In this document: piece after piece, positions 1 to 55,848 of the stretch
Layout of the letters: every line of letters begins with the position of its first letter
Position numbering within the stretch: position 1 is the first letter of the stretch
Source: a virus
Direction: 5' to 3' (one strand)
IMG/VR virus record: IMGVR_UViG_3300024289_000019
Location: 32,001 to 96,000 of that record
DNA: 64,000 nucleotides
Notes under the pieces: model-generated
What the model was told of the DNA's origin: nothing
Databases searched by the model: none
What the model saw: only the letters and a program-made list of their open reading frames with translations
Position numbers and translations under genes: made by a program

Positions 1-52
1 GAAATACAACTGGGTATCCAGTGGTTGGTTTAAATGCAAAGGTGCCAAAACA

Positions 53-928
53 ATGATAACTAAATTTGGAAGAAGATTTATAGCTCAATACTTAGCTGGA
101 CAAACATCTTTTCCAGCCCAAGATCTTGCGGTTGGGATAGATAGTACTCCTACAAATGTAAATGGAAACGATACAAGGCTTGGTTTTGAGTTTTATAGAA
201 TTCCTATAACATTGGGAACAATTGATATTCAAACTGATCAAAATGGTAACAGCACATATGCGGTAGTTTATAAAACTACTTTGCCACAAGATGTTGCTGG
301 CAAAATAAAAGAGATAGGATTGTATCCTTCTTCAAGATTATCAGTTAATAATTATGATAGCAAATTTATTTCAGATTTTGAAAACAATTTGCTTTGGACA
401 GATTCAAATGGGAACAATCCAGAATTGGTTACAAGTCCATCGGCAAGAATTGGTGCTACTTTAGCTAAATGCAATGTTGTAAGTTCTCAAACAAGAGAAT
501 TTATAACAAAAATTAATTCCTTAGATATGTCTGGATACAGCGCAAATGACACGCTTACATTTGCATTAAATCAATCAGACATAAATTTAAATTCAATAAA
601 GATTAAATTTTATAGCTCAGATACATCCTATTCCTACATTAACTTTACTTCATTGTCTGGAACTGGAGAAAAAATCTTATCAGCTAATTTGTCTCAAATT
701 CAAACATTTGGAAGCCCAGATGTTTCATCAATAAACAAAGTTGGTGTAGAAGTGGTTGCAAAAAATACTGGAGATACCGTAGTTTATTTTGATGGAATAC
801 GAATAAATGATGAAGACACATTTGATCCTAGATTTGGCCTAATTGCTCGTTCTGTTTTAAGCGAAACATTAGACAAAAAAGCTGGAAGGCCAGCTGATAT
901 TGAATTTAGATTAGGAATTAATTTCTAA
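53..928 (+). CDS. Putative virion structural (tail/baseplate) protein
   Basis: 291 aa ORF directly upstream of large tail-like genes; no specific family recognised. Confidence 0.5.
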   Translation: MITKFGRRFIAQYLAGQTSFPAQDLAVGIDSTPTNVNGNDTRLGFEFYRIPITLGTIDIQTDQNGNSTYAVVYKTTLPQDVAGKIKEIGLYPSSRLSVNNYDSKFISDFENNLLWTDSNGNNPELVTSPSARIGATLAKCNVVSSQTREFITKINSLDMSGYSANDTLTFALNQSDINLNSIKIKFYSSDTSYSYINFTSLSGTGEKILSANLSQIQTFGSPDVSSINKVGVEVVAKNTGDTVVYFDGIRINDEDTFDPRFGLIARSVLSETLDKKAGRPADIEFRLGINF

Positions 929-3300: not shown

Positions 3301-3301
3301 T

Positions 3302-6300
3302 ATGGGCATGTATAGAAAAACAGATCCAGACACAGCATCTGGTGCAGCCAGTAATTATACAGATTCTGGTAAAAATTGGAGAAAGCATTCAAATTTTTTT
3401 AGAAAAACAAATGATAATGAGACTGCATCTTTAACTGCAGTACCAGGAAGATATACAGATAATACTAGAACTTGGAGAAGAATAAATTCTTTATGGATGT
3501 ATAATTTTTGGTACGATTCATTATCTTGGGGATGGAAAAGAATACATTATAAAAATGCTAACGTACCATATGCAACAACTGCACCAACGCTTAGATACAA
3601 TTCTTATAATGGCAAAATAATAGATACTTATGAAACTGATGCGGTAGCATGGTGGGCATCAGATCCTTACCAGCCTCAATGGGCTCAAATGGGTCCAGGT
3701 CCAGCAGGAATTGGTCAAGATGTATGGTATTTAGACAGCAATGGTAATCAAGTTGGATCATCAACTCCAACATTTTTATGGGGAAAAGATGGGGTATGGT
3801 TTAATTCTTCTACTGCAACAACTGATGGAACAATTGTTTATAATAGCGAATTTGCTACGCCAGAACTTGCTGCATATTCTTATGATGACGAAGGAAACTA
3901 TAATGGCGACAAGTTAAGAAATTCTCAAGCGGTGCTAGAAGCATATGATAGATATTATATTTGGTACAAGGTAAGCAAAAGTCGTACAGTTGGAGGAAAT
4001 ACATTAACTGGACAAGCATTTAGTCAGGCGGTATATATTACCAGACAAGAACCTGTAGTAACATCTTTTGTAATGCAATCTCCAGAAACAGTTGCAGTAG
4101 GTACCGCAAAAACTGTAACATTTAATATTAGAAATGAATGGTGGAGAAAGGCAAGTCAAACACAATCATATATTGAGTGGCACGAACTTGATACACCTAC
4201 ACAAACTCCAACATACTCTACTTTAAAAAAATCAGATTTATTATATCTAACAACAATAACAACAGAAAATTCTACCTCTTTACAAGGATCGTACTCTTAC
4301 ACGCCAGTAGGCGTTGGTAAATACGTGCTTGCTAAACTTGTTGTAAAAAATAGTTATACAGATAAACCTCCAGTAACCGATATAGTTAGAACTCAAATAA
4401 CTTCTGTTGCAACTGCAGCAACAAGTGGTCCATTTACAATTAGTGGTGTAACTAAAAATTATCCATCTTATGATTCCACTTATGGATACCAAAGATCTGT
4501 ATCTGTTAACATAGGTCAATCTGCAAATGCAACAAAATATGAAGTACAGATAGAAGGGCAATATCCGTTTGATGGTAGCGGGTATGGAGGAGGATCCTAT
4601 TCCACATGGACTGTTTTACAAAGTTATGCTAGTGCTCCTTATGTAAACGAGTCTAGTCGTTCTGGAGGAATATTAACATATTCAAAAAATGTTGCAGATT
4701 ATCAATTTTATAGGGTTACAGTAAGAGCAAGTGTTGACGGAAATAGTGCTACTTATGCATATAGTAATAATGGAACAAGTAGTACTCCATCTTATGTTTA
4801 TGCAGAAGGATTTGGCCCATCTACACCTTATATTTCAAACATAACCACCAGTTCTAATACAATTGGAACATACATTAATTTTGATGTAAGTTTATCAAGT
4901 GAGGGAAGTAATAGATTATCTTATTGGCAATACTCAATGGATGGCGGATATAGCTGGAATACCCCAAGCGGTTATGATTACATAGCGTTTAATGGAGCAA
5001 GGTTTTATGTGTCTTCTGGAACATATTATTCTTTTATGATTAGGGCAAATAATATGGATGGATTTACATCTTCATCTAGTAATCAGCTTTCAATAACATC
5101 TTTTCAAAAACCAGGAGACCCTACAAATGTTGTTTTCCATACGTACAACAATTATGAAGGAACAATATACTTTACGACTGGAAGTAATACTCAATCAGTT
5201 CAGTACTATTTAGATTATGAATCTGGACTACAATATGAAAGCAAAGATACTTATATAAATATTGGTTCTAACGATTATGGAAGTATGACAATTTCTGGAA
5301 TGTCTTCTCTTAGCAGATCTTATACGCCGTACCTTCTTGCTTATTCTGGTACAAATAAAACTGGTGGACAAGGAAACTCTTTATCATATTCACCTAGATC
5401 TTTAAATGGTACAAATAAACCAACGGCAACTTTTAGTGGTACTCCTACAGTTTCTAATCAAAGGACCGTAACAGCTTCTTGGACGGGCGGAGGAGCAGCA
5501 AACGAATATTATGTTCAGCTTTATGATTACTATGGAGGTTATGTTGTAGCCTCAACAACCACAACTTCAACTTCAGCATCTTTTGGACCATCAGATGGAA
5601 CCGATTATGCAAAAACATATTATTTCTTTATTACGCCAAGATATAGATATGCTGGAAGCATTTATACTGATGGACAACCAGCGGCGTCTAGTAACGTTAC
5701 AACATATGCAAATTTGACTGCTCCCACAATTACTGATGTTCAAACATCTGATGGTAATAATTGGACAATTACTGTAAGTGGTGGAGGGCCATACTATCAA
5801 GTTTATTGGTTATCATCAACCCCTGGCCCATCAAATACACTAACCAATTATGATGCCGCAAGTACATCTACTACAATTTCTGAAACTTATTCAACTACAG
5901 GAAGCGTTTATTGGTGGGCCAGATCTTCTACAGAAAATAGAGGAAATACAACAACTAGTGGTAATGCAACAATTGGAACATTTTCAGACTGGTCTTCATA
6001 TTATTTGGCGCATCAAGTTACGTATAATTATAATGGCGGGTCTGGAAGTACTTCTAGAGCAACAGTAAAAGATTCAACATACACACAATTACCAACCCCA
6101 AATAATAGATCAGGATATACATTTAATGGCTGGTATACAGCATCTTCAGGAGGCACCTATCTTGGAGGAAGTGGAAGTTATGTATATATAACTTCAACCC
6201 AAACAATATATGCCCAATGGACTTTAAACCTTTCTTCTCCAACAATTTCAAGTGTTACTTTTAATTCATCTAATAATACATGGACTGTTAATTATTCTGG

Positions 6301-7612
6301 AGGATCTGGTCCATACTATCACATATGGTATCAAACAACTTCATCAACAACTACAGTGCCATCTTTATCTGGTACTAAAAATAGTGTTGCAGATCAAACT
6401 TCTAGCTCTGCTTCTTCAACAGATAAAGTTTTGTCTCCATCAGCTGGATACGCATATTATTGGTGGGTGAGATCATCAACTACGTTAAATGGAACTGGTG
6501 ATGGAGTTGTAAGCGATTGGAATGGTCCAGTAACAATGTCCCCAATGAATACATCTGCCCCTACATTATCTGGAACAACAAAAGTTGGACAGACACTCAC
6601 ATTTGGTGTTGGCTCGTGGGTTAATGCTACGTATTACGATCTTGAATTATATAGAGGAACCGCAGGAGTTATTACGTCTGAAACACAGTCAAAAGATGCT
6701 GGAAATTCAACAAGCAGCACTTATGTTATTCCTTCTTCAGATTTTACAGATCCCAATAATAGAAAGTATTATAGATCGTTTGCTAAAGGATTTAATCCAT
6801 CATATACAAACACCTCATTTGTTGCTGGTACTGAACTTGGACCACTTGTAAACCTTACCTTGTATACAATTTCATTTGATAGCAAGGGTGGTTCTGCTGT
6901 ATCTGATTTAACTCAGTCTACAGAAGGTGGGTCAATTGCAAAGCCATCAGATCCAACATTGAGTGGTCAAAATTTTGGTGGCTGGTCTACAACCAATGGC
7001 GGTACCACAGCGGTATCTTGGCCAAGAACTCCATCCTCAAATGAAACACTATATGCTATTTGGACTTCAGCAGCATCATATTCTATTACATATAATGGAA
7101 ATGGAAACACTGGTGGAAGTACTACAGCAACAACTGGTAATGGTTCTGTTACTGTAAGAGCAAACGGGTTTACGAGAACAAATTGTACATTTTCAAGTTG
7201 GAATACTTCAGCGGATGGTAGTGGAACAACCTACTCACCTAATGATAGTTATAATTTAACAGCCAACGTTACCTTCTATGCTATCTGGACTGCTGTTACA
7301 AACTCAGCTACTGCACCTACTGGATTTAAATTTGATGGAAATAACCTTCCAACTTCGGGAAGAAAACGATGGTCTTGGACTGGTGTTGGAACAGTTACTG
7401 GTGGAACAGCAACTGGTATTAGGGTACAGATAAGTTCAACAAGTTCTACTTCTGGATTTTCCATAGCAACTGGCTCACCACTCGCTCTAACTGCAAGATC
7501 TTATGATATTGCAGTTAGCCCAGTTACCAGTGCCAGATGGTTAAGAATAGCAATGGAGTATACTGATGGTCTTGGAGTAACTAGGGTTGGAACATATACA
7601 AGTGCACTATAA
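3302..7612 (+). CDS. Large receptor-binding/tail protein with Ig/FN3-like and InlB B-repeat (Listeria-Bacteroides repeat) domains
   Basis: 1436 aa, S/T/Y-rich; repeats such as VTYNYNGG...PTPNNRSGYTFNGWYT and ISFDSKGG...PSDPTLSGQNFGGWST. Confidence 0.7.
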   Translation: MGMYRKTDPDTASGAASNYTDSGKNWRKHSNFFRKTNDNETASLTAVPGRYTDNTRTWRRINSLWMYNFWYDSLSWGWKRIHYKNANVPYATTAPTLRYNSYNGKIIDTYETDAVAWWASDPYQPQWAQMGPGPAGIGQDVWYLDSNGNQVGSSTPTFLWGKDGVWFNSSTATTDGTIVYNSEFATPELAAYSYDDEGNYNGDKLRNSQAVLEAYDRYYIWYKVSKSRTVGGNTLTGQAFSQAVYITRQEPVVTSFVMQSPETVAVGTAKTVTFNIRNEWWRKASQTQSYIEWHELDTPTQTPTYSTLKKSDLLYLTTITTENSTSLQGSYSYTPVGVGKYVLAKLVVKNSYTDKPPVTDIVRTQITSVATAATSGPFTISGVTKNYPSYDSTYGYQRSVSVNIGQSANATKYEVQIEGQYPFDGSGYGGGSYSTWTVLQSYASAPYVNESSRSGGILTYSKNVADYQFYRVTVRASVDGNSATYAYSNNGTSSTPSYVYAEGFGPSTPYISNITTSSNTIGTYINFDVSLSSEGSNRLSYWQYSMDGGYSWNTPSGYDYIAFNGARFYVSSGTYYSFMIRANNMDGFTSSSSNQLSITSFQKPGDPTNVVFHTYNNYEGTIYFTTGSNTQSVQYYLDYESGLQYESKDTYINIGSNDYGSMTISGMSSLSRSYTPYLLAYSGTNKTGGQGNSLSYSPRSLNGTNKPTATFSGTPTVSNQRTVTASWTGGGAANEYYVQLYDYYGGYVVASTTTTSTSASFGPSDGTDYAKTYYFFITPRYRYAGSIYTDGQPAASSNVTTYANLTAPTITDVQTSDGNNWTITVSGGGPYYQVYWLSSTPGPSNTLTNYDAASTSTTISETYSTTGSVYWWARSSTENRGNTTTSGNATIGTFSDWSSYYLAHQVTYNYNGGSGSTSRATVKDSTYTQLPTPNNRSGYTFNGWYTASSGGTYLGGSGSYVYITSTQTIYAQWTLNLSSPTISSVTFNSSNNTWTVNYSGGSGPYYHIWYQTTSSTTTVPSLSGTKNSVADQTSSSASSTDKVLSPSAGYAYYWWVRSSTTLNGTGDGVVSDWNGPVTMSPMNTSAPTLSGTTKVGQTLTFGVGSWVNATYYDLELYRGTAGVITSETQSKDAGNSTSSTYVIPSSDFTDPNNRKYYRSFAKGFNPSYTNTSFVAGTELGPLVNLTLYTISFDSKGGSAVSDLTQSTEGGSIAKPSDPTLSGQNFGGWSTTNGGTTAVSWPRTPSSNETLYAIWTSAASYSITYNGNGNTGGSTTATTGNGSVTVRANGFTRTNCTFSSWNTSADGSGTTYSPNDSYNLTANVTFYAIWTAVTNSATAPTGFKFDGNNLPTSGRKRWSWTGVGTVTGGTATGIRVQISSTSSTSGFSIATGSPLALTARSYDIAVSPVTSARWLRIAMEYTDGLGVTRVGTYTSAL

Positions 7613-7621
7613 GGAGAAAAT

Positions 7622-7834
7622 ATGATAACAAAAGATGATAAAATACAAATTGTGAATAATAAAATAAGCATACTTGAGGGTGTGATTTATAATTTAGACA
7701 TTGAGATGGCTGCAGAATCAGCCAAATCTAATCCAAATAATGAACATATTGAAAATCTTTTATCTGAAAAAAACGACAATTTACTAGCGTTAAACGCTAT
7801 TAATGAGATCCTAGACATTCTAGTTTTAGAATGA
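7622..7834 (+). CDS. Small coiled-coil protein (paralog of next gene)
   Basis: AGGAG RBS; shares the DK..I.N..I..LE..IY.L motif with 7857..8087. Confidence 0.6.
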   Translation: MITKDDKIQIVNNKISILEGVIYNLDIEMAAESAKSNPNNEHIENLLSEKNDNLLALNAINEILDILVLE

Positions 7835-7856
7835 TATAATATGAAAGGAGGAAACA

Positions 7857-8087
7857 ATGACAGAAACAACAGAAACACTGCTTACCACTGAGGATAAGCA
7901 TGCTATTTTAAATCAACATATTAAAAGCCTAGAATATAATATATATGGTCTTGAGCTTGACCTTATGGTTGAGAATGCTGGAACACCAGATCCAGATAGA
8001 GTTACATCTATTAATGCACAGATATCAACTGCTAATGCAAAAAGAGATGTACTGGTTGCAGAACGAGCAGAAGTATTAGGATTGTAG
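7857..8087 (+). CDS. Small coiled-coil protein
   Basis: AGGAGG RBS and upstream TGATATAAT; paralog of previous gene. Confidence 0.65.
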   Translation: MTETTETLLTTEDKHAILNQHIKSLEYNIYGLELDLMVENAGTPDPDRVTSINAQISTANAKRDVLVAERAEVLGL

Positions 8088-8093
8088 GATACA

Positions 8094-8282
8094 ATGGCTG
8101 AAAAAGCAGAATTAATAATTACAGCACTGCAACAAAGAATGGGTGAAATAGTAGCAAACTATGAAACTCAAATTGCAGTATTGAGAGCAGAAATAACTAT
8201 TCTTATGGAGCAGTCAAAGAAGCAGGATGCCCTTGCGGAATATGCAAATTCATTAGAAGAAAAAATTAGTGGGGTAGAGTAA
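8094..8282 (+). CDS. Hypothetical coiled-coil protein
   Basis: ORF in operon. Confidence 0.55.
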   Translation: MAEKAELIITALQQRMGEIVANYETQIAVLRAEITILMEQSKKQDALAEYANSLEEKISGVE

Positions 8283-8283
8283 A

Positions 8284-8718
8284 ATGGCAGATACAAGTTT
8301 TAATTTTGAAGATGGGGCACCAATTTCTGCTTCAGAGTTAAGAAAACTTGTCGAGTATATTAACAAGGTAAATGCACAGGCCATATCCTTGCCAAGTCAG
8401 TTTGGTACTTTAGCTGATAAAGCTATTGCACAAAAAATGACTGCTGGATCTGTTTCTGTTCCAAGCCTAAGTTTAACGGCAGCAAAAGAAGTGCCAATTG
8501 TATTTACCCCACCACTTACTTCGGTTCCAGCAGGAGTCCAATTAACTGTAGAGACAAGTTCTGTTGACTCAGAAATAATTGTTTTTTTGAAAGCAAATAC
8601 TGCAACTTCTACAGGATGCACTGCAGTTTTAACCAGAGCCGCTAACGCTATTGGAAAATCTATAACAAGCCCAGGTTCTGTAAAAATACATTATTTTGCC
8701 ATAGCAAAATCTTCTTGA
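8284..8718 (+). CDS. Hypothetical structural protein
   Basis: 144 aa ORF ending the tail operon. Confidence 0.5.
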   Translation: MADTSFNFEDGAPISASELRKLVEYINKVNAQAISLPSQFGTLADKAIAQKMTAGSVSVPSLSLTAAKEVPIVFTPPLTSVPAGVQLTVETSSVDSEIIVFLKANTATSTGCTAVLTRAANAIGKSITSPGSVKIHYFAIAKSS

Positions 8719-8751
8719 CAAAATATAAAGTAATAGTAAAATTATACAACC

Positions 8752-8775
8752 AAAGTCACTGACGTGACTTTTTTC
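8752..8775 (+). terminator. Rho-independent terminator
   Basis: AAAGTCAC-tgac-GTGACTTT followed by a T tract. Confidence 0.6.
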
Positions 8776-8789
8776 ATGTTAGGATTTAA

Positions 8790-9590
8790 ATGACAAATGA
8801 TTTAAAATGGATGCTGTCGTCAGACCAGCAGTTCCCTTATCAAGATGATAAGATGATTGAATTATGGTTTAAGGTTTTAAAATGGTTTAAGCCAGATGTA
8901 GTAGACTATTTAGGTGACACAGACGATCAGGCATGCTATAGCAAATATACTGAAGGTCGTTCAGCAGAGTTTTTAAATCTTCACAAAACAGACAGCGCTG
9001 ACCTTATTGTTCCTATGATGAGACACGAAGCTAAAGGTGCAAGAGATTTTTATGCTAAGACTCGTGAGATGCTTCCAGACGCACAATTATTTTCTGCATT
9101 AGGAAACCATGACATACGTATCTTTGATTATATAGATAAAAAACTTCCAGAGTATGCAGCACAAGTAACACCAGAAGCGCTATGGTCTTTGGATTCATTA
9201 GGGTATGAATATATTTATTATAACGAACTCCCTAAGCGCCGTTTTGGCGATATACATGTTCATCATGGAATTTCTATTGCCGCAACTGGGTCAGTTCGCA
9301 AGGATATGGAAGATCTTCAAGTTTCATTAATACGTGGTCATTCACATAGAATTGCATCACATTTAGTTACATATGAATTAAGAAACAATGGAGAAGGAGA
9401 AACTCTTCGTGGTTATGAAATTGGACATATGTGTGATGAAAAGGGTCCAGGCATGAAGTATACCCAACATCACGATTGGCAAAAAGGATTTGCAATTGCA
9501 CATATTGTCAACGATTATCCTCATATTCAAATGATTCACGTAGCACCAGATTATTCATGTGTTGTAGATGGGAAAGTATTTAAACTATGA
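8790..9590 (+). CDS. Calcineurin-like metallophosphoesterase
   Basis: Motifs SD, GD, GNHD, HHG, GHSH. Confidence 0.85.
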   Translation: MTNDLKWMLSSDQQFPYQDDKMIELWFKVLKWFKPDVVDYLGDTDDQACYSKYTEGRSAEFLNLHKTDSADLIVPMMRHEAKGARDFYAKTREMLPDAQLFSALGNHDIRIFDYIDKKLPEYAAQVTPEALWSLDSLGYEYIYYNELPKRRFGDIHVHHGISIAATGSVRKDMEDLQVSLIRGHSHRIASHLVTYELRNNGEGETLRGYEIGHMCDEKGPGMKYTQHHDWQKGFAIAHIVNDYPHIQMIHVAPDYSCVVDGKVFKL

Positions 9591-9775
9591 TGCATTGTAG
9601 AAGATGTGGCGGACGAGTTTTTATAGATAGAGTCTTTTCACAAAAACTACATATTGAATTGTATTGTCTGCTTTGTGGAAGACGTTGGATGATTAATAAA
9701 GAAATGAGTATATTTGGAAGATGGCTAGACGAAAAAGAGCTAGAACAAAGAAAAACTTTCGGTATTTCTTCTTAA
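9587..9775 (+). CDS. Small zinc-ribbon protein
   Basis: CRRCGG...CLLCG. Confidence 0.6.
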   Translation: MMHCRRCGGRVFIDRVFSQKLHIELYCLLCGRRWMINKEMSIFGRWLDEKELEQRKTFGISS

Positions 9776-10209
9776 ATGAAAAATTACATAAAGTTTTAAA
9801 ATCTTCTAGAGTAAAAGATCAGATCATTGCCTGGTCTTATTTAGATAAAAAAAGAGTTTTATACTCATATGCTGAAGTAATCAAATATATGGAAAGAGCG
9901 TATTCTCTTAAAGAAGTGTGCTTTATTTTAGATAAACATGTTGTAACTGTAAAAGACTATATTGGTGAAGGCAAAATTAGACAGCCACAAAAAATATATC
10001 CTATAGGAAATTCTGAAAGCACAAAATGGTCTCAATATATGTTTAATCAAAAAGACATATTAGAGTTACATGATTACATATTGAGCAGCGGTAGAAATAC
10101 TGAGAACCTGCCAACAAAAACTGAATTACTGGCCTTGCTAAATCATAATGTCATATTGTATACTAAGACATCCGAAGGCACCTTTGTCCCAGTATGGAAA
10201 GCAGAATGA
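9721..10209 (+). CDS. Putative DNA-binding protein (MerR-like HTH)
   Basis: AYSLKEVCFILDKHVVTVKDYIGEGKI resembles a MerR/Xis-type HTH. Confidence 0.55.
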   Translation: MARRKRARTKKNFRYFFLNEKLHKVLKSSRVKDQIIAWSYLDKKRVLYSYAEVIKYMERAYSLKEVCFILDKHVVTVKDYIGEGKIRQPQKIYPIGNSESTKWSQYMFNQKDILELHDYILSSGRNTENLPTKTELLALLNHNVILYTKTSEGTFVPVWKAE

Positions 10210-10499
10210 GAAAAAAACAAGAAGAAGAATTTGAAAAGCTTGACAGTTCTACGGCTTTTACTAGAATTGCAGGCAACCTAGATCTTGCATCTATGCATGC
10301 AAATAAAAAGAAAGATGTGCAAGGGCTAATCACAGTCGCAGTTGCTTGGATGCAATTTTCTGATTTTATTGCTAATGGAGAGATGCCAAAAAAGAAATTT
10401 ACAATAGGATTTGGACCAGAAGAGGAGGAGCAAGATGAAAGACCAATCAACCGTCGTAAAGGTAGATCTTCAATTCACAAGAAATCTAGGGAACTATGA
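10194..10499 (+). CDS. Hypothetical protein
   Basis: ORF in operon; exact start uncertain. Confidence 0.45.
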   Translation: MESRMRKKQEEEFEKLDSSTAFTRIAGNLDLASMHANKKKDVQGLITVAVAWMQFSDFIANGEMPKKKFTIGFGPEEEEQDERPINRRKGRSSIHKKSREL

Positions 10500-10659
10500 A
10501 AGTATTAAGATTGGTATAGGCGTAGAAGATATTGTTCGTGACGGCGAAAATGTTGATTCTGCCACAAATAGAGTTTATAAATTTGTTGAAGATAAATTAA
10601 TTCAAAAAGCTTCCGAGATAGAAGAGGAATTGAAAGTTGGCAAGCAAGGAAAACAGTAA
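10435..10659 (+). CDS. Hypothetical phage protein
   Basis: GAGGAG RBS before ATG 10435; contains TRNLGNYESIKI motif typical of a phage family. Confidence 0.6.
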   Translation: MKDQSTVVKVDLQFTRNLGNYESIKIGIGVEDIVRDGENVDSATNRVYKFVEDKLIQKASEIEEELKVGKQGKQ

Positions 10660-11014
10660 ACAGGCTCACGCTCTGCTTACACATTATATTTATTTGTTTA
10701 AGGATAAATATAATCGTGACCCAATTTTAAATAGGTATAGAGAAAAATGGGGTATGCAAGACGTTATAGATACTGTTGGATATGAACGTGCCAAAGATTT
10801 GATAGAATATTATTTTACTTTTAATAGATATAATCATCCCTTACAATGGTTTTTTTATAATTTTGATAAATTAGATAAGCTTTGGAAAGATATAGAGGAT
10901 GACAAAGTGCATAGAGATATGCTAAGATTAAAGACCAAAGAAATGGTGGAAGAGAGAGAAAGGCGGTTAGATGAACACGGAAGCAACGCTGATATCAGCA
11001 GTATGCAAAAATAA
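10637..11014 (+). CDS. Hypothetical protein upstream of helicase
   Basis: 125 aa ORF overlapping its neighbours. Confidence 0.6.
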   Translation: MASKENSKQAHALLTHYIYLFKDKYNRDPILNRYREKWGMQDVIDTVGYERAKDLIEYYFTFNRYNHPLQWFFYNFDKLDKLWKDIEDDKVHRDMLRLKTKEMVEERERRLDEHGSNADISSMQK

Positions 11015-12197
11015 AGATATAGCCACTTTACTTGCCGATAATGTTGACGATTTATTTACCTCCCATAAAGATGTTTGGGAAGGCTTAAAGTCTTATTATT
11101 ATAAATTTAAAGCAGTTCCAGATATCGGAATCCTTACGGATAGGTTCAGAGACTTTGACCCATCAGAGGTTAAAGGTGAAACTGGATATTATTTAGACCA
11201 ACTTAAAGCAGAATATCTTTCTAGCAAATTAAAGGGCATTATATTACGTGGAGGGTCTGCGTTAAAAGAAGATGCTCCTTCTAGAATTATTGCTAATATG
11301 CAAGCGGAGCTTGCAAGCCTTTCTAAATTTACTAGCAACGTAAGAGATTTAGATGTTACCGATTTTGAATCTGCAGAAAAATATTTTGAGCAAGTCAGAA
11401 AACGTTCTGGCATTATGGGTGGAAGTCCAGGAATTCCTACTGGCTTTAAAGCAATTGATACAGCATATGCAACTGGAATGGCTCCAGGACATTTAATTGT
11501 TGCTATTGGTTGGCCAGGTAGAGGAAAGACTTGGTTTACTTCCTACCTTGCATGCAAAGCATGGGAACAAGGTTTTAAACCCATGATTATATCTCTTGAA
11601 ATGTCTCCAGAAGATATGCGTAATCGTATTTACACAATGATGGGATCTGGATTGTTTAAGGCAAGTGATTTTTCTAGAGGCGATGTAAATGTTGATGACT
11701 TCAGGTCCTGGAGTAAAAAGAATTTTGAAAACAAGAATGGTTTCATACTTGTTTCAAATGAAGGAATGGGTTCGGTAAATGCAAATACTGTTCAAGCTAA
11801 AATTGACCAGCATAAACCAGATATTGTAATCCTTGATTACCACCAGTTGTTTGCTGATACAAAAGGAAGCACTGGGGCTACTGAGAGAAATATGAACGTT
11901 TCTCGTGAATTTAAAATGTTGGCAATGAACAATAATATTCCTATTATTGACATTACCGCTGCAACTATGGATGATGTATCAGATCAAGACAATCCGCCTA
12001 TGCTGTCACAAGTGGCATGGTCAAAAGCTATTGAGTATGATGCTGATATGGCAATAGCCATTCATAAATATAATGACACAAACATGATTGAAATTGTGTC
12101 CAGAAAGAACCGCCACGGCAGCGACTTTGGCTTCTATTTGGACTGGGATATTAATAGGGGTATAATTAAGGAGATATATGAAAATATACCTAAATGA
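10971..12197 (+). CDS. dnaB: Replicative DNA helicase (DnaB-like)
   Basis: Walker A GWPGRGKT, SLEMS, ILDYHQL, IEYDADM, KNRHG. Confidence 0.93.
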   Translation: MNTEATLISAVCKNKDIATLLADNVDDLFTSHKDVWEGLKSYYYKFKAVPDIGILTDRFRDFDPSEVKGETGYYLDQLKAEYLSSKLKGIILRGGSALKEDAPSRIIANMQAELASLSKFTSNVRDLDVTDFESAEKYFEQVRKRSGIMGGSPGIPTGFKAIDTAYATGMAPGHLIVAIGWPGRGKTWFTSYLACKAWEQGFKPMIISLEMSPEDMRNRIYTMMGSGLFKASDFSRGDVNVDDFRSWSKKNFENKNGFILVSNEGMGSVNANTVQAKIDQHKPDIVILDYHQLFADTKGSTGATERNMNVSREFKMLAMNNNIPIIDITAATMDDVSDQDNPPMLSQVAWSKAIEYDADMAIAIHKYNDTNMIEIVSRKNRHGSDFGFYLDWDINRGIIKEIYENIPK

Positions 12198-43668: not shown

Positions 43669-43758
43669 TTATCTCCATTCTCTTTCGTGGGGGTAATTGT
43701 ATCATTGGGTGGGGGAAGTTGGCAACGAAAGGGTAAGAACCAACCTCCCCCATGGATC

Positions 43759-43911
43759 CTACTTCTTACGGTTTGAAGTAGGCTTCTCAGCGGTGAACTG
43801 AATGCCCTTTTGAGTTGCCTCTGCTAGGGCCTGCTTTGCTGCGGATGAAAAACGTCCACGGGCACCAACGGTGATGCCTTGAGCTTTTAGATAGTCACGC
43901 TTTGTTGTCAT
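43759..43911 (-). CDS. Lsr2-like DNA-binding mini-protein (not in ORF track)
   Basis: 50 aa MTTKRDYLKAQGITVGARGRFSSAAKQALAEA...; RGR AT-hook; GAAAGGA RBS. Confidence 0.7.
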   Translation of the reverse strand: MTTKRDYLKAQGITVGARGRFSSAAKQALAEATQKGIQFTAEKPTSNRKK

Positions 43912-45074: not shown

Positions 45075-45329
45075 TTATAACCCAACATTAAAATACTCCT
45101 CATCTTCAGGTGTTAATTCATAGAATAGATTAAACTTAGATTGTAAATATGGGTCTGATGACATTAAAGCAATTTGATAATCTGCATAAAATGTCCCTTC
45201 ATCTAAATTAGAACTATTCCATTGTTCAAATAGATGTTCAGATATTTCAGTAATGACAGCGTCAATTACCATTTGATTCTCATCATCTAAAAATGACCCA
45301 CGGTCATTTAGTTCCAGCCTATCAGCCAT
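45075..45329 (-). CDS. Hypothetical acidic protein
   Basis: ORF overlapping upstream gene. Confidence 0.55.
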   Translation of the reverse strand: MADRLELNDRGSFLDDENQMVIDAVITEISEHLFEQWNSSNLDEGTFYADYQIALMSSDPYLQSKFNLFYELTPEDEEYFNVGL

Positions 45330-46074
45330 TTACTTGCTCCATTCTATAATCAGGGACATGCTCGGAATCCAAGTATATCTTATGGGTCTGACATTCTTTG
45401 ACACAATCAAGGTCTGCCTCGCCTAAATAATTACAAGCAGAGCAAATTTGACCACAATCATTATCGCAATAATCTAATGTATCTTCTGCATCACAATCTC
45501 TACATTTAGATTCATATTCAGAACCTTCTAATTGTTCACCACGAAGGAACTCGCATTCGCCACCCCAACCTGTCTCTTCTTCATAACTAAGAGTAAATAG
45601 GAGTGCTGGATATTGTGCTGATAATTTAGCAATGGCAGGAAACGGTGGAGACCAAGCAGTATTGAAATTATAATAAACTACAAGGTTCTCTCCATTTTCA
45701 GTAGGACCCTCCATATATGTTTCAGGATATTCATCATCTGAAGATACAGCGACATCCCATTTTGTGCCCCATTCACGAACATTGAATGAATACCAGTCAT
45801 TTGTTTGGAATTTCATTTGCTCTTCAATAGGCAATTTATGGTCGGGTTGCTGAAGATACTCATACTCAGTAATACCTGCTTGTAAATGATTATAGATATT
45901 ATGAAAAGCAAATACAGGATTAGGATATGTAGTTTGTTTCTTTTGCATTTGTCCAGTTTCCATGTTCCATGAATCATGGACCTGTGCAAATGGCTTATTC
46001 AATTGTGCTACTAATGTATTGACAAGTTGTGGATTTCCCTCTATGGTCAATCCGTTATATACCCAGTTCGGCAT
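45322..46074 (-). CDS. DUF1281/YubB ferredoxin-like family protein
   Basis: MPNW..N, WYSFNVREWGTKWD, FNTAWSPP, LSYEE. Confidence 0.75.
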   Translation of the reverse strand: MPNWVYNGLTIEGNPQLVNTLVAQLNKPFAQVHDSWNMETGQMQKKQTTYPNPVFAFHNIYNHLQAGITEYEYLQQPDHKLPIEEQMKFQTNDWYSFNVREWGTKWDVAVSSDDEYPETYMEGPTENGENLVVYYNFNTAWSPPFPAIAKLSAQYPALLFTLSYEEETGWGGECEFLRGEQLEGSEYESKCRDCDAEDTLDYCDNDCGQICSACNYLGEADLDCVKECQTHKIYLDSEHVPDYRMEQVNG

Positions 46075-46254
46075 ATATATTCCTTTCGTTCGGTTATTGG
46101 CATAATTATAATGCCTACCACCGACATTTGTCTATATGATGTGGATCACATAAAATGACTAATAGGTTTATTTATCTTATATATTGAGAATTTCAGTGAA
46201 TATAGTTGACAAACGTAAAAAGATCAATCTATCCTCCGCTTTTACGGGCAGCTA

Positions 46255-46375
46255 TAAAAAAAGCGGGGGCCCCAACAGTCTCTCCCTCTGTTGGGCCCCC
46301 TGTGTTTGGCTGCATCCACACTATGCATATTTAAAGACTGGGGCGAAAGGAACCCTGAAAGCCTCACCAAACGTT
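46255..46375 (-). ncRNA. Predicted small RNA with anti-Shine-Dalgarno loop
   Basis: TGATATAAT upstream, GUUUGG/CCAAAC closing stem, loop UUCCUUUCG, GC-rich terminator plus U tract. Confidence 0.6.
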
Positions 46376-46388
46376 ATTTATCATTATA

Positions 46389-46754
46389 TCATACTGAGGC
46401 AGGTTCAAGAGGTGGTACAGTTATACCAGCATGATAAGCGATAAACTCTTCCCATGAATGTCCTTCAACGGTTTTGCCAACCATATCAACATCCACGGTA
46501 AAATCCCAAGCAGCAAAATTGCTAGGTTTAGATACTGCGCCAATGCCATAACCAGTTTCGTCCAGGACCTCATGCTGAATCATATGACTAATAATCATAC
46601 GAATGCAATATGGTGTGTCATTCCACCTTGGACGAGCATGTGCTAATGCTGTAGCAAGTTTAACTTGCCATTCATCTTCTCCCCAATGTGAATATAACCA
46701 AACTGCAGGCTCATTTTCGCCTTCGTTAAAAATATAATTAATTCGTGCTCCCAC
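46389..46754 (-). CDS. Hypothetical phage protein
   Basis: MGARINY...LYSHWG motif. Confidence 0.65.
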   Translation of the reverse strand: MGARINYIFNEGENEPAVWLYSHWGEDEWQVKLATALAHARPRWNDTPYCIRMIISHMIQHEVLDETGYGIGAVSKPSNFAAWDFTVDVDMVGKTVEGHSWEEFIAYHAGITVPPLEPASV

Positions 46755-47302: not shown

Positions 47303-47952
47303 TACCAGCGCACATCCGCATCTTCAACATCAAATGATTGAACAACAACATCTCCGTTGTATGCATCAAGAGTTAAAGTATCTTGTAAGAAGTAACGTGC
47401 ATCAAAATCTTCTACGTCCTCCATTGGAATATCGTATTCAACCTCAAATGACATGCTTCCAGTAATACGAACTGTTTGCTTTGGTTCATGACCAAGAATT
47501 TCGCAAAGGTCTCTAAGGACATCTTCCTTTTCAACGTTTGGGTTGTACCAGCCATCAGTATCTAGATTATTAATAATACGACGTATTTGGTCGTTACTAA
47601 TAGTTAGTTGTTTTTCAAGGCGGACCAAGGAATCTAATTTACCTTCTAGGTCCACAGTCTTGATACTTGGGTAAGTTATATCATAACCATTAATAGACTT
47701 ATATGTTGTAAGTGCATTAGGGTTATAGGTCTCAGGGACCGTTGATGTTTCTTGCATTTCTTTCCTTTCGTTAATTGGTGTAATTGTAGCAGGCTCCACC
47801 GACAAAAGGTTGGGCCTACGTCCACATGGACATGTGACATTCATCACACTTCCAGATGGGAATCCGAATTTATCTGATGATGTTACTTCAATTAAAGTAT
47901 CACATTCATCAGGATCGCATGCATATGTATTTTTAGTCCAGGTTTCTGACAT
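47302..47952 (-). CDS. Hypothetical protein with internal promoter and RBS (second start near 47757)
   Basis: N-terminal Cys motif; internal TGTCGG-N10-TACAAT and AACGAAAGGAA before an in-frame ATG. Confidence 0.55.
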   Translation of the reverse strand: MSETWTKNTYACDPDECDTLIEVTSSDKFGFPSGSVMNVTCPCGRRPNLLSVEPATITPINERKEMQETSTVPETYNPNALTTYKSINGYDITYPSIKTVDLEGKLDSLVRLEKQLTISNDQIRRIINNLDTDGWYNPNVEKEDVLRDLCEILGHEPKQTVRITGSMSFEVEYDIPMEDVEDFDARYFLQDTLTLDAYNGDVVVQSFDVEDADVRW

Positions 47953-48173: not shown

Positions 48174-48322
48174 GGCCCAAATTATACACGAGACGACTGA
48201 CATTTACAAGCATTTCCAGGGATTTTTTCTAGATTCCCGTATTATCTACATCACATCCGTAAAAGCTCTGGGCGATCCTTAGTATATTGCGGGCGTCTCA
48301 TTATGTGAAACATTTTATCTTG

Positions 48323-48397
48323 CGATGCGTACGGGATTTGAACCCGTGATCTCCACAGTGACAGTGTGGTGAAATAACCAAGCTATTCTAACGCACC
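48323..48397 (-). tRNA. tRNA-Asp (GTC)
   Basis: Reverse complement folds as a cloverleaf: GGTGCGT/ACGCATC, CCACA-CTGTCAC-TGTGG, GGTTCAAATCC. Confidence 0.9.
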
Positions 48398-48442
48398 AAA
48401 TAAAAACGGGGGAGATTTATCTCCCCCGCTAGTTTATCATTC

Positions 48443-49447
48443 TTAGAATGATTTTACTAACTTGAGAAGTTTATTTTTCTCAGCAGTAAGAATTGGGTCA
48501 AAGCCACTCGCACCCGCCATTAGCGTTTCAGAATTGCCACGACCAGAACGGAAATAATCAAGGCGTTCAGTAAGCGCATTGAAAGCACCCCATTTTGTTC
48601 CCTTGATATTAGCGTTAGTTGGTGAGTTATGATAAAGTTCATCAATCAAGATAACTTTATTTTCCCACTTTTTCAAAGCACCCTTAGCGTCTTTTTCAGG
48701 CTTAGGATAAATTGTGCGAATTAGTTTAGAGAATTCGGCATCAGTAATTTCCTGCTTGAAAAGTTCCTGCGCTTCTTTCTCGAATTCATCAAAGTATCCA
48801 AGAGCAAGACCCAAAGTTTCACGAGCAACTTGAATTCTGCCTTCGACAGATTGAGTATGGCGAATTTTGAATGATTGCTTAGCATTACGCATAGCAAGAT
48901 TCAAAGTGTTTTGGCATACAACACGAACAGGTGTAATTGCTGCCTGAACAGCAACAGAACCATCATGTGAAGTCCATACGATTAGATAAAGTTTTGTTTG
49001 GTCATTAGCACCTTGTGGGTCTAACACCATAGTTCTAGGAACATCAACAGTTCCGAAAACTACTTTACCATTTTTGAGAGAACCAGCAGATTCCCAGCGA
49101 CACTCAGGGTTAGCATCATGAATGTTATCTGCGAAAGCAAATAATTCTTCATTCTGAACAGGCTTGTATCGCTTACCAACAGTAGCGAGAACATCAGTTC
49201 CACCATTGAATGGATTTGTGCGAATAACTAACTGAGCGTTAGATACATCATTCCAAGATTCTGAAATGTGGTCGGTCAATGGAGATAAGCGAACATTCCA
49301 ATTAGAAAGTTTTGCTTCATCGAGCATTGTTTGAGTAGTTACATTTTCATCTTGATTGAAAATGCGATTAGCGAGATTGTGCCATGCGGGTTTTCCACGC
49401 AAAGCAAAGGCAACTTCGTTGCCATTTGTTTCTAGGTTATGAGCCAT
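48443..49447 (-). CDS. DUF932 family (phage/plasmid-like protein TIGR03299)
   Basis: MAHNLE...PAWH, YKPVQNEE, ESAGSL, TSHDGS, TPVRVVCQNTL, IRHT, GTKWGAFNA. Confidence 0.88.
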   Translation of the reverse strand: MAHNLETNGNEVAFALRGKPAWHNLANRIFNQDENVTTQTMLDEAKLSNWNVRLSPLTDHISESWNDVSNAQLVIRTNPFNGGTDVLATVGKRYKPVQNEELFAFADNIHDANPECRWESAGSLKNGKVVFGTVDVPRTMVLDPQGANDQTKLYLIVWTSHDGSVAVQAAITPVRVVCQNTLNLAMRNAKQSFKIRHTQSVEGRIQVARETLGLALGYFDEFEKEAQELFKQEITDAEFSKLIRTIYPKPEKDAKGALKKWENKVILIDELYHNSPTNANIKGTKWGAFNALTERLDYFRSGRGNSETLMAGASGFDPILTAEKNKLLKLVKSF

Positions 49448-49686: not shown

Positions 49687-49869
49687 TTACTTACCGACTT
49701 TTACCATAGCATAACGCAAACCGCTGCCAGTATCTAATCTTAATTTAGTTAGATTAGGTCTGATAGAAATTATTTCGCTAATAGTGCCAGTAATTCCTGA
49801 TTTACCAGTTGTAAAAACATCGCCTTTGCGATAGAAGCGACCTTTCTTGGTATCTAGAATTGGTGACAT
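49687..49869 (-). CDS. Small SH3/KOW-like protein
   Basis: Y.KGD.FTT.KS..TG.I.EI; paralog of 50441..50620. Confidence 0.6.
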   Translation of the reverse strand: MSPILDTKKGRFYRKGDVFTTGKSGITGTISEIISIRPNLTKLRLDTGSGLRYAMVKVGK

Positions 49870-49934: not shown

Positions 49935-50357
49935 TTATAGATAACGAGCAATAGCGTTGTAAGTAGAAGTAGAAACTACTTCCTCATCGGTCATCTTGAG
50001 AATACGAATAGCGTTCTCAATCTCCTCTACCATTTCGTTATACTGCCAATCGTGGAAAGTCTGAAAGTCTTTCTTTGGTTCAGCAGGTAGTTCAATAGCA
50101 TTAGCAGGAAGGTAGAAATCTACATTTATCCTTCCGTCATAACGCTTGTTAGCAGACAAGTTTTCTGCCTTAGAGATAGCAGTTAGAGCAAGTTTAGCGA
50201 CTTCCTTGTTCCACTTCTCTTGGGCTTTCTCAAACTTAGCCTCGTTAGTTGCTTGGTTCTCTCTATCCTTTTGGAGTTGAGCGAGTTTTGTTTCTAAGGC
50301 TTTGATAACCTTAGTTGTAGCGATTTTTACATTTATCGCTTTTCCGTTTCTTGCCAT
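49935..50357 (-). CDS. Hypothetical coiled-coil protein
   Basis: Strong RBS and motif promoter. Confidence 0.7.
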   Translation of the reverse strand: MARNGKAINVKIATTKVIKALETKLAQLQKDRENQATNEAKFEKAQEKWNKEVAKLALTAISKAENLSANKRYDGRINVDFYLPANAIELPAEPKKDFQTFHDWQYNEMVEEIENAIRILKMTDEEVVSTSTYNAIARYL

Positions 50358-50698: not shown

Positions 50699-50965
50699 TT
50701 AGTCACACCAAGCCTCTAGGTGGTGCTGTTCGATAATAGCCCATGCGGGTGCGGTATCTCTGCCTTTATAGGATACGCCTTCGGGCATTGGTATCTCACG
50801 ATCAGTTTCGCCCTCATCATAAGCAAAAATAGCCTCAATACAAGGTTCTACCATGCTAGTAGGAACGGGCGGGTAATGATTAGCAGTTAGATGAATTGAG
50901 ATAGCAGTAGATAAATCTAATCCTAAATCATAGTCAGCTAAATCGTGTGCGAAATTACTTCCCAT
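50699..50965 (-). CDS. Hypothetical phage protein
   Basis: HLTANHYPPVP...HHLEAW. Confidence 0.65.
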   Translation of the reverse strand: MGSNFAHDLADYDLGLDLSTAISIHLTANHYPPVPTSMVEPCIEAIFAYDEGETDREIPMPEGVSYKGRDTAPAWAIIEQHHLEAWCD

Positions 50966-51236
50966 TATTTTCCTCCAATACTGAGTTTTTCATTTGTTCC
51001 ATTTCGTCAATAGTTTCGATTAGTTCCCTGAATTGTGTTTCAGTTAGTAATACTTTAGTAATTTTATCAGTTGTAGCAGAAGCAATAGCAGTAGCATACA
51101 TAAACATAGCCCTAGCGAATTGTTCTTGGTCTAAGTCATGGCGAGAATGGACAATAAAAGAAGCGAGTTCCATTTGTTCATCGCCAATAATTCCCTCTTG
51201 AGTAGCCTCAAGTAGAGCAGAAGCAGTAGATAACAT
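50955..51236 (-). CDS. Hypothetical protein
   Basis: RBS and motif promoter. Confidence 0.65.
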   Translation of the reverse strand: MLSTASALLEATQEGIIGDEQMELASFIVHSRHDLDQEQFARAMFMYATAIASATTDKITKVLLTETQFRELIETIDEMEQMKNSVLEENNGK

Positions 51237-51291: not shown

Positions 51292-51546
51292 TTAGGCTAG
51301 GGCTAAGATAGCCTGAGAAGCACCGTCATTTACACGGGCGAGTTCTGCCTCTAACTCATTACGAGTAAATTTGGCAGGATTACCGATAAGTTCTGATACC
51401 ATGCGAGAATTTTCCTCAACAAAGATACCTGCGGGCAGGCGCTTTACTGCTGAATAGAAAGAGCCTTGTGGGTCAAGCATAGAAACAAATTCTACGCCTG
51501 CAACGGAGAATGGGTACTTTACCCAGTTAGTTGTATCTAAAGACAT
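51292..51546 (-). CDS. Hypothetical protein
   Basis: RBS and motif promoter. Confidence 0.65.
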   Translation of the reverse strand: MSLDTTNWVKYPFSVAGVEFVSMLDPQGSFYSAVKRLPAGIFVEENSRMVSELIGNPAKFTRNELEAELARVNDGASQAILALA

Positions 51547-52576: not shown

Positions 52577-53074
52577 TTACCAAGAGGACTGATAGTAGTA
52601 GGATAAATCCTTATACTCATCATTTTCTACTAGTGGGGCTATCTGCTTGATAGTGTCCTTGATATCAGACCAATAGTATTCATCGATATCATATGAGCCG
52701 AAAAAGAAACCAGCAGACGGCATTAGTTCGCTAGGGTCTTTCTTGAATAAGGCTTGACGGCAGGTAGTAAGTAATTCTTTTAGTTTATCACGAGATACAT
52801 AGTATTCACCGCAATTATCTTCACCGCCTTGTACATTATCGACAAACCATTTGTGTATCTGATTAGCCTTACGCCAATACGCCACATTTACGCTAACATC
52901 TACGCCATAGATACTTTCAGTATCTACAAGAGTATCAACACCAGCAGCATTTACTACATCATTCCATTGTGGATAAGTTGCAGCAGAGTATTTAGTGTCT
53001 AAATCTCTATCTAATTTAGACCAGTCAATTTTAGCAATATGCTTACGAGCAGAGAGGTACATATCTAAACCCAT
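52577..53074 (-). CDS. Conserved phage protein
   Basis: MGLDMYL...YWRKANQIHKWF...GFFFGS...YYQSSW. Confidence 0.75.
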   Translation of the reverse strand: MGLDMYLSARKHIAKIDWSKLDRDLDTKYSAATYPQWNDVVNAAGVDTLVDTESIYGVDVSVNVAYWRKANQIHKWFVDNVQGGEDNCGEYYVSRDKLKELLTTCRQALFKKDPSELMPSAGFFFGSYDIDEYYWSDIKDTIKQIAPLVENDEYKDLSYYYQSSW

Positions 53075-53763: not shown

Positions 53764-53984
53764 TAGTTAGCCTCCTGAGTAGCAAAAATTGAAAGTTCAT
53801 TTTCGGAAAGCAATCCGTTATCCCAAATCACATCTCCGTCATTATCTAAAATAAGTTCATAGGGATTACACTCGCAAGTTTCATAGTCAAAATAATCCTC
53901 GCCATTTCCCCAATAAATAGCACCCATACCACGACAGGCATCACAATTTTTTATTGCTCTTAGAGCAGTTTCAAGTTTATCCAT
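53763..53984 (-). CDS. Small zinc-binding protein
   Basis: CDACRGMG...CEC; paralog at 55729..55848. Confidence 0.6.
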   Translation of the reverse strand: MDKLETALRAIKNCDACRGMGAIYWGNGEDYFDYETCECNPYELILDNDGDVIWDNGLLSENELSIFATQEAN

Positions 53985-54144
53985 TTTCTTTTTCCTTTCT
54001 TTCTTGAATTGTAGCAGTTAGCACCGACAACGCTTCCGCCTTAGAGGCTTCACGCTGGGCGTTGATAAAGTTTCTGAATTCGATCAAATCCATTTTAGTT
54101 TTCCTTTCGTTTATTGGTTAGATTATAGCGGAAGCCACCGACAT

Positions 54145-55728: not shown

Positions 55729-55848
55729 TTAGTTATTCTCCTTTATACATTCGCAAGTTTCTACATCATAGTCTAAGTCATTACCCCAAAAGATAAGACC
55801 TACGCCATTACATTCATCACATTCAATTCTAGTTAGAGAGTTTATCAT
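55729..55848 (-). CDS. 39 aa zinc-binding peptide (not in ORF track)
   Basis: MINSLTRIECDECNGVGLIFWGNDLDYDVETCEC; AACGAAAGGAA RBS. Confidence 0.6.
   Translation of the reverse strand: MINSLTRIECDECNGVGLIFWGNDLDYDVETCECIKENN

Follow-up and report, generated by a model that had tools for sequence, protein, structure and literature searches.

The window analyzed here, i.e., the whole stretch of 64,000 nucleotides (nt), comprises bases 32001–96000 of the IMG/VR virus record IMGVR_UViG_3300024289_000019, a virus genome of 112,301 base pairs (bp) that is rated complete. On its minus strand, at the end of the open reading frame (ORF) 46389..46754, lies the gene of a small RNA that displays a loop complementary to the ribosome-binding sites of a block of leftward genes. 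A preliminary description of the locus had placed there an extended -10 promoter overlapping the stop codon of this ORF, followed by about 120 nt ending in a strong GC hairpin and a U tract, and these elements were all found (Table 1). The promoter contains no TGTCRG element and hence differs in class from the promoters of the gene block; separate regulation of the RNA is therefore possible. The G+C content of the RNA core is 49%, that of the genome about 36–39%.

The minimum free energy (MFE) fold and the centroid fold agreed on a three-way junction, closed as described by GUUUGG/CCAAAC, the closing stem reaching 7 bp. The long arm consists of GAGGCU/AGUCUU (6 bp), an internal loop, GGGU/GCCC (4 bp) and the loop UCCUUUC (46351–46345, minus strand), so that the complementary loop is exposed as had been predicted. 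The 7-mer is unpaired with a probability of about 0.99, and the computed cost of opening the 9-mer UUCCUUUCG is 1.5 kcal/mol. The U and G flanking the loop are able to close as a U-G pair, and both vary among relatives. A 5-bp hairpin with a 7-nt loop (UGCAU-AGUGUGG-AUGCA) abuts the 3' strand of the closing stem. The terminator had been missed by a simple scan because its loop has 9 nt; this loop, AGGGAGAGA (46279–46287, minus strand), consists of purines only, contains GGAG and is kept in all homologues, though the stem changes. Kissing between the CCUUUC loop and this purine loop was considered and dropped, as stem nucleotides and G-U pairs would be required. Since the folding energy z-score was only -1.5, the structure is not established by a single sequence.

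In order to compare related sequences, about 160 syntenic loci were recovered by protein-anchored searches using the upstream ORF of 121 amino acids. Five RNA sequence types were available: the window (with L147, 99% identical), L149, the group L002/L003/L004, L231 and L230. The fold was borne out by these relatives. All 22 core base pairs were standard in all five sequences (110/110 cells), compared with 32–52% paired in slid-partner controls. Double-sided compensatory changes occurred in two core helices, namely the loop-proximal stem, which exists in three versions (GGGU/GCCC, GGCU/AGCC and GGUC/GGCC), and the 5-bp hairpin, in which U-A changed to C-G. The terminator stem showed one compensatory change from A-U to G-C (L149/L002). 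The closing stem and the lower arm were invariant, and covariation is thus uninformative for both. Within the core, identity was 89–96%, compared with 69–77% for the adjacent ORF DNA, and a covariance model, R1, scored 96–105 bits on the homologues. CCUUUC was invariant while six of the ten other hairpin columns varied. Upstream, TGnTATAAT was invariant in 5/5 homologues, while the surrounding sequence and the spacing to the core (10–22 nt) varied; coding constraint does not account for this, since in L149/L002 the upstream ORF does not include the box. The only overlapping ORF, of 42 amino acids (46242..46370), was rejected as coding, as its frame is broken by indels in the relatives, including a 1-nt insertion in L230. 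To judge from these comparisons, the locus represents, with high confidence, a real RNA gene with its own promoter and terminator that is under purifying selection.

An Rfam scan of the window returned only six tRNAs at gathering score and matched no RNA family to the small RNA. A permissive scan (E up to 10) of positions 46150–46500 gave chance-level matches only, e.g., ctRNA_pGA1 (E 0.17) at the terminator on the opposite strand. Since neither Rfam nor tRNA models matched, the small RNA is a new structured RNA family of a freshwater actinophage clade; even without any idea of its targets, it is a well-supported family with a searchable model. Its distribution is narrow. No match was found by blastn in 50,697 phage records, 14- and 15-mers searched in viral contigs gave mostly chance matches, and two 20-nt matches (L125, L138) were discarded as lying inside a helicase gene. 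Apart from the five sequence types, R1 matched none of about 150 syntenic loci that are more distant, and the phage genome itself holds a single copy. A 23-mer of the core was absent from 185,579 reference prokaryote genomes and, among viral contigs, matched the same five only. The carriers form only a sub-clade of the syntenic loci.

Gene order differs among close relatives (window 45322–46093 versus L145:3764–4550). The gene for a DUF1281_C protein of 250 amino acids follows the RNA in the window and lies upstream of the RNA's neighbours in L002-type phages. The RNA remains linked to the 121-amino-acid ORF and to a downstream module of promoter and ribosome site. As for the tRNA genes of the window, that for tRNA-Asp (48322–48430, minus strand) starts 7 nt after a strong terminator hairpin with a U tract (48430–48405), which is odd for a tRNA gene.

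Contigs from riverine metatranscriptomes (four libraries) cover the RNA locus; they give neither strand, ends nor level, and DNA carry-over is possible. In three runs, identical or nearly identical contigs extended from 46309/46310 to 47000 or 47207, so that they include the upstream ORFs and the -10 box and reach 63 nt into the core. The shared stop at 46309/10 and, in two runs, the uncovered terminator and downstream promoter were recorded and not used as evidence.

The phage is uncultivated, and its host is very probably a freshwater actinobacterium. The window encodes WhiB (above the Pfam cut-off), GP88, DUF7455 and a DnaE-type polymerase. The nearest cultured relatives of its DUF932 protein are found in Streptomyces phages of the BE/BK clusters (50–56% identity), nearly all other matches are from actinophages, and the related contigs originate from river and lake metagenomes. 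The family is abundant in rivers and lakes. The host was inferred from WhiB, GP88 and DUF7455 together with the actinophage relatives and the lake and river origin; a search of reference genomes with the phage WhiB gave no match. The DUF932 gene (48623–49024) had a summed contig depth of 80–230 in four riverine metatranscriptomes, compared with about 5–25 on its neighbours, and since several variant contigs were present, the gene is common to many related phages. In the cultured Streptomyces phage Jay2Jay (positions 1–12000; L317), the homologue of the DUF932 gene is part of the terminal repeat and hence present in two places of the record. Several of the leftward leaders there have the form ...TAGACTTAG(T/A)ACATCGAAAGGG(R)G, and a complementary run of C comes next. 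The CGAAAGG leader element thus occurs in cultured relatives, far from the start codon, and no TGTCRG-N10 promoters were present in this region.

The loop of the small RNA had been described as the exact complement of the ribosome-binding site of at least nine leftward genes. The 9-mer TTCCTTTCG occurs ten times in the window, nine times on the plus strand and once on the minus strand inside the RNA; 0.39 copies were expected, and none of 100 shuffles reached ten. All nine plus-strand copies were exact and lie 6–11 nt upstream of an ATG opening a leftward ORF (Table 1). The chance of finding the 9-mer in a given stretch of 140 nt is about 4e-4. Genome-wide, 25 GAAAGG sites precede ORFs, 22 of them in the leftward block at 42.9–56.7 kb, and genes outside this class use AGGAG or GGAGG sites. 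A duplex with the 9-nt loop of -8 kcal/mol or stronger was computed for 18/33 start regions within the block, compared with 3/130 elsewhere, both counts being based on heuristic gene starts. For nine targets, the loop duplex amounts to -11.8 to -12.0 kcal/mol, compared with -9.8 kcal/mol for pairing of the same sites with an assumed 16S rRNA tail CCUCCUUUCU, the usual actinobacterial one, which may not be that of the host.

The consensus of the ribosome sites is AACGAAAGGAA. Its flanks (AAC upstream, A downstream) pair with the loop of the small RNA and with that of a second hairpin described below, and are unable to pair with the assumed 16S tail. Most GAAAGG-type sites are preceded by the shared promoter TGTCGGTGG-N-TATAAT. 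Promoters of the form TGTCRG-N10-TAnnnT are family-wide: they occur in the window at 44.7–56.5 kb (minus strand), 17 times in the block of the record of L230, G001 (L309, 1–10 kb), and 11 times in the complete relative G004 (L312). By sequence only, they resemble the mycobacterial RecA-independent (PafBC) promoter motif (PMC6789036). The density of CGAAAGG sites was 3.8 per 10 kb in RNA-bearing loci and 0.26 per 10 kb in 152 RNA-less loci. The +1 position of the site is A in 33/36 cases where the RNA has U opposite, and in 4/13 cases in G001, where the RNA has C. This correlation is weak because it represents one evolutionary contrast and pairing with a U of 16S rRNA explains it equally. The second 7-nt loop, AGUGUGG, was rejected as a further seed, since its complementarity to 22 leaders (-4.09 kcal/mol) was no better than to shuffled leaders (-4.19 kcal/mol).

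A second hairpin with an anti-ribosome-site loop sits behind a small Lsr2-like gene (43759..43911). Its loop contains the only minus-strand copy of CCUUUCGUU, whose complement AACGAAAGG is present in ten plus-strand copies, all of them ribosome sites. The complement of this loop overlaps the target of the small RNA loop, including flanks that do not belong to the Shine-Dalgarno (SD) sequence. The hairpin is kept in L149:4834–4869 and L004:5296–5331 with 12–14 bp, the stem sequence differing and the loop core being the same. It is not followed by a U tract; a -10-like TGATACAAT is found instead. The transcribed strand of the block contains CCUUUC only twice altogether, once in each of these two loops. 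That two unrelated, conserved loops match overlapping parts of an 11-nt consensus is difficult to explain by chance or by mere imitation of the 16S tail. In the corresponding block of G004, the only structured CCUUUC loop belongs to a tRNA-Glu(UUC) (L312:17612–17687, plus strand), whose anticodon arm contains CCCUUUCAC.

Table 1. Positions in the window of the small RNA gene, the second hairpin and the ribosome-binding sites (RBS) matching the loop of the small RNA.
Feature	Position	Strand	Remarks
Extended -10 promoter TGATATAAT	46383..46391	-	TGA within is the stop codon of ORF 46389..46754; sequence read
Structured core, 69-nt three-way junction	46304..46372	-	MFE and centroid fold
7-bp closing stem GUUUGGU/GCCAAAC	46372-46366 and 46310-46304	-	Sequence read, MFE and centroid fold
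Anti-ribosome-site loop UUCCUUUCG	46344..46352	-	Invariant core CCUUUC at 46350-46345
Intrinsic terminator	46256..46300	-	13-bp GC-rich stem (46300-46265), one bulge, purine loop AGGGAGAGA, U7 at 46262-46256
Second hairpin	43710..43752	-	14-bp stem, 15-nt loop containing CCUUUCGUU (43732-43724), complementary to AACGAAAGG
RBS CGAAAGGAA	46080..46088	-	Gene 45322..46074; promoter 46134-46105 upstream; loop duplex -11.8 kcal/mol
RBS CGAAAGGAA	47762..47770	-	Gene for 150 amino acids, start at 47754
RBS CGAAAGGAA	49875..49883	-	Gene 49687..49869
RBS CGAAAGGAA	50367..50375	-	Gene 49935..50357
RBS CGAAAGGAA	51241..51249	-	Gene 50955..51236
RBS CGAAAGGAA	51552..51560	-	Gene 51292..51546
RBS CGAAAGGAA	53082..53090	-	Gene 52577..53074
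RBS CGAAAGGAA	54101..54109	-	Gene 53977..54093
RBS CGAAAGGAA	55857..55865	-	Gene 55729..55848

Starting from the established gene, structure, conservation, loop accessibility and class-specific complementarity, we infer transcription, pairing, a repressive direction and timing as follows. First, a host-type extended -10 promoter would start transcription a few nt 5' of the closing stem, and the intrinsic terminator would end it, yielding a primary RNA of about 120 nt. Second, the long arm of the three-way junction would display the unpaired CCUUUC loop, which reads UUCCUUUCG in the window phage. Third, this loop would pair in trans with GAAAGG-type SD sequences of the consensus given above, the targets being almost only the first genes of the leftward transcription units driven by TGTCGG promoters. 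Pairing would compete with the 3' tail of 16S rRNA, resulting in less translation initiation and possibly in lower mRNA stability, while the AGGAG/GGAGG sites of other genes would be left largely untouched. The hairpin at 43710–43752, located 3' of its gene, would offer a second loop of the same specificity.

That pairing of the CCUUUC loop with the GAAAGG-type sites of the leftward block is the main function of the RNA is a tentative assignment, close to an even call. A wider proposal, possible and somewhat doubtful, is that of a post-transcriptional master switch: the small RNA and the 3'-hairpin loop would read a private extended SD "address" on about 20 early units and silence them together, either ending the early phase or blocking the early genes of superinfecting relatives, while genes with ordinary AGGAG/GGAGG sites stay translatable; maturation by RNase P via a tRNA-like closing stem might be part of it. 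If true, one gene class would be marked by a distinct ribosome-binding sequence that is read by a phage-encoded RNA. The earlier idea that one RNA shuts off the whole block appears partly supported: the accessible loop, the class-specific complementarity and the second hairpin speak for it, and the variable loop flanks and the occurrence of the module without the RNA speak against it.

Several observations weigh against the pairing function. The loop reads UACCUUUCA in L231 and ACCCUUUCG in L230, its flanking positions are among the most variable of the RNA, and the exact 9-nt match is confined to the window lineage. Conservation of the loop, proposed earlier as a check, therefore holds for the invariant 6-nt core CCUUUC only and not for the 9-nt complement. 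In L231 and L230, complementarity is down to 6–7 nt, or about -5 kcal/mol by a nearest-neighbour estimate, and the ribosome sites stay ACGAAAGGA (L231) or GAAAGGN (G001) despite the changed loops. Since the sites are unchanged while the loop flanks differ, there is no compensatory co-variation between loop and target. Since the carriers form one clade, the co-occurrence of RNA and sites counts as a single evolutionary event. Moreover, R1 found no match in the complete relatives G003, G004 and G005, and the RNA-less G004 has 11 TGTCAG-N10-TAnnnT promoters and eight GAAAGG sites in a homologous block. L247 likewise carries the module of promoter and ribosome site with no RNA nearby. The module is thus older, the RNA an add-on and the regulon independent of it. 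Transcript strand, timing and repression are predictions, the metatranscriptome data being contigs.

The conservation of unpaired positions also bears on this question. Many of them are invariant, namely the internal loop, the linker UAAAUA, the loop AGUGUGG and the terminator loop. This exceeds the need of a simple seed RNA and suggests a protein partner or a tertiary fold. Four alternatives were weighed, ranking from a structured RNA with another partner through a tRNA-like decoy and targets in the host or in superinfecting phages down to an anti-SD mimic. In the first, the RNA would serve another role, e.g., as a protein scaffold or sponge or in anti-defence; CCUUUC would be kept because a protein or a tertiary contact requires it, and the sites would match it only incidentally, as both resemble or complement the 16S tail. 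Such a role is unlikely and still a serious candidate. It would fit the invariance of nearly all unpaired nucleotides, the loop being just one part of them, the conservation of the purine-rich terminator loop, although such loops usually drift, the limitation of conserved complementarity to 6 nt and the relatives that have the same class of ribosome sites without the RNA. It would also fit a syntenic terminator hairpin with the loop AACCUUUCUA in a clade in which AAGGAGG serves the next gene; this hairpin has 13 bp and is present at L264:2895–2945, L253:2728–2778 and four identical loci, where the anchor ORF shows 51% identity. It leaves unexplained, however, why a second, unrelated hairpin complements an adjacent part of the 11-nt consensus and why the loop flanks of the window lineage match site flanks outside the SD sequence, and the low chance of the 9-mer match stands against it as well.

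CCUUUC is also the end of the usual actinobacterial anti-SD sequence, and a loop that looks like it could serve otherwise. The RNA might mimic the 3' tail of 16S rRNA and act as a decoy for a factor that acts on the anti-SD sequence, e.g., a MazF-type endoribonuclease. The loop is fully exposed, and UCCUUUC corresponds to 7 nt of the tail CCUCCUUUCU that we assume. The U before CC, however, is replaced by A in L231 and by C in L230, no such factor was identified here, and the idea draws on the specificity of MazF-mt3. This explanation appears very improbable indeed.

Pairing could also be retained with other main targets, i.e., mRNAs of the host that carry GAAAGG-type sites or early mRNAs of related phages that superinfect. 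The 6-nt core suffices only for targets sharing bare GAAAGG, and as GAAAGG is family-wide on the homologous block, such mRNAs would be recognisable by the RNA of a resident phage; C4 RNA works in immunity (PMC5320573). We give this version little credence: searches of reference genomes for the host gave no match, and the 9-nt match in the window lineage is to the phage's own consensus.

The shape of the core raises a further alternative, namely that of a tRNA-shaped RNA with a 5' end made by RNase P and a trimmed 3' end with CCA, which would mimic tRNA, e.g., as a decoy for a tRNA-directed nuclease or enzyme. The 7-bp closing stem begins with G-C, and the 5-bp hairpin with its 7-nt loop adjoins the 3' strand without a linker, as the T arm adjoins the acceptor stem. 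After the closing stem, ACCA follows in L149 and L002, GCCA in L230, GCUA in L231 and ACAG in the window (46300–46303). The 5' leader measures between about 3 and 18 nt, a variation that would fit a processed end, and the layout is like that of the phage's own tRNA genes, with a -10 box 8–22 nt upstream and encoded CCA mostly missing. These traits make tRNA mimicry conceivable, yet rather improbable: ARAGORN in standard and mitochondrial mode made no call except one at low threshold in L230, and the Rfam tRNA model (RF00005) gave no match with E up to 10. A D arm is absent, AGUGUGG stands where a T loop would read UUCRANY, the loop in the anticodon position has neither U33 nor a purine at 37 and comprises 8 nt in L230, and N-CCA is missing in two of the five sequences. 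Processing by RNase P would, in addition, fit the antisense reading as well, C4 RNA being an RNase P substrate (PMC5320573). By analogy with C4, the tRNA-like traits are possibly a signal for processing by RNase P and the CCA enzyme, and the N-CCA after the closing stem may either signal 3' processing of the tRNA type or be left over from it.

The pairing of the small RNA loop with ribosome sites, as favoured here, can be compared with known systems. C4 RNA has three stems, one loop of which occludes a ribosome site, and the 5' end of its closing stem is generated by RNase P (PMC5320573). Like C4 of phages P1/P7 (RF01695), the RNA described here is phage-encoded, has a core of about 70–77 nt with a closing stem and two hairpins, and carries a loop complementary to the ribosome-binding site of the phage's own mRNAs, the pairing being predicted here and known for C4. 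The closing stem likewise begins with G, after a leader of variable length. In contrast to C4, which is cut from a longer mRNA, it has its own promoter and terminator. C4 directs two loops at one operon, whereas here one complementary loop faces 9–22 separate leaders. The RF01695 model matched neither in the window at gathering score nor at 46150–46500 with E up to 10, the host phylum is not the same, and the immunity context is known for C4 only.

In 6C RNA, a pyrimidine motif in hairpin loops pairs with purine-rich mRNA of many targets without Hfq or ProQ (PMC6486639). This RNA of Mycobacterium and other Actinobacteria (RF01066), and similar RNAs with C-rich loops of Gram-positives, share with the phage RNA the pyrimidine loop facing purine-rich sites and, for 6C, probably the host phylum. 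However, 6C is host-encoded and uses runs of C forming G-C pairs, whereas four of the six core pairs of CCUUUC would be A-U; the phage RNA gave no Rfam 6C match and has the architecture of a three-way junction.

Other phages control translation at the same step by different means. The sar RNA of P22 and the OOP RNA of lambda are cis-antisense RNAs that pair with phage mRNA within or close to the ribosome site and so block its translation. They are encoded opposite a single target with full complementarity, whereas the RNA described here is encoded apart and shares 6–9 nt with its putative targets. RegB of T4 is an endoribonuclease that inactivates many early mRNAs via their shared SD sequence, cutting in GGAG. 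It resembles the proposed switch as a phage device that acts on many early mRNAs through a shared SD sequence, but it is a protein cutting GGAG and not an RNA proposed to mask GAAAGG. To our knowledge, little has been learned about small RNAs of lytic phages that act in trans, and for actinobacterial phages there is almost nothing. If the proposal is true, about 20 mRNAs would be under temporal or immunity control at translation initiation, where T4 uses a protein nuclease, and the RNA would be a compact example of chaperone-independent loop-to-SD pairing in Actinobacteria. The mechanism would then be the one already known from C4 and actinobacterial 6C RNA, extended here to an entire class of transcription units in a phage.

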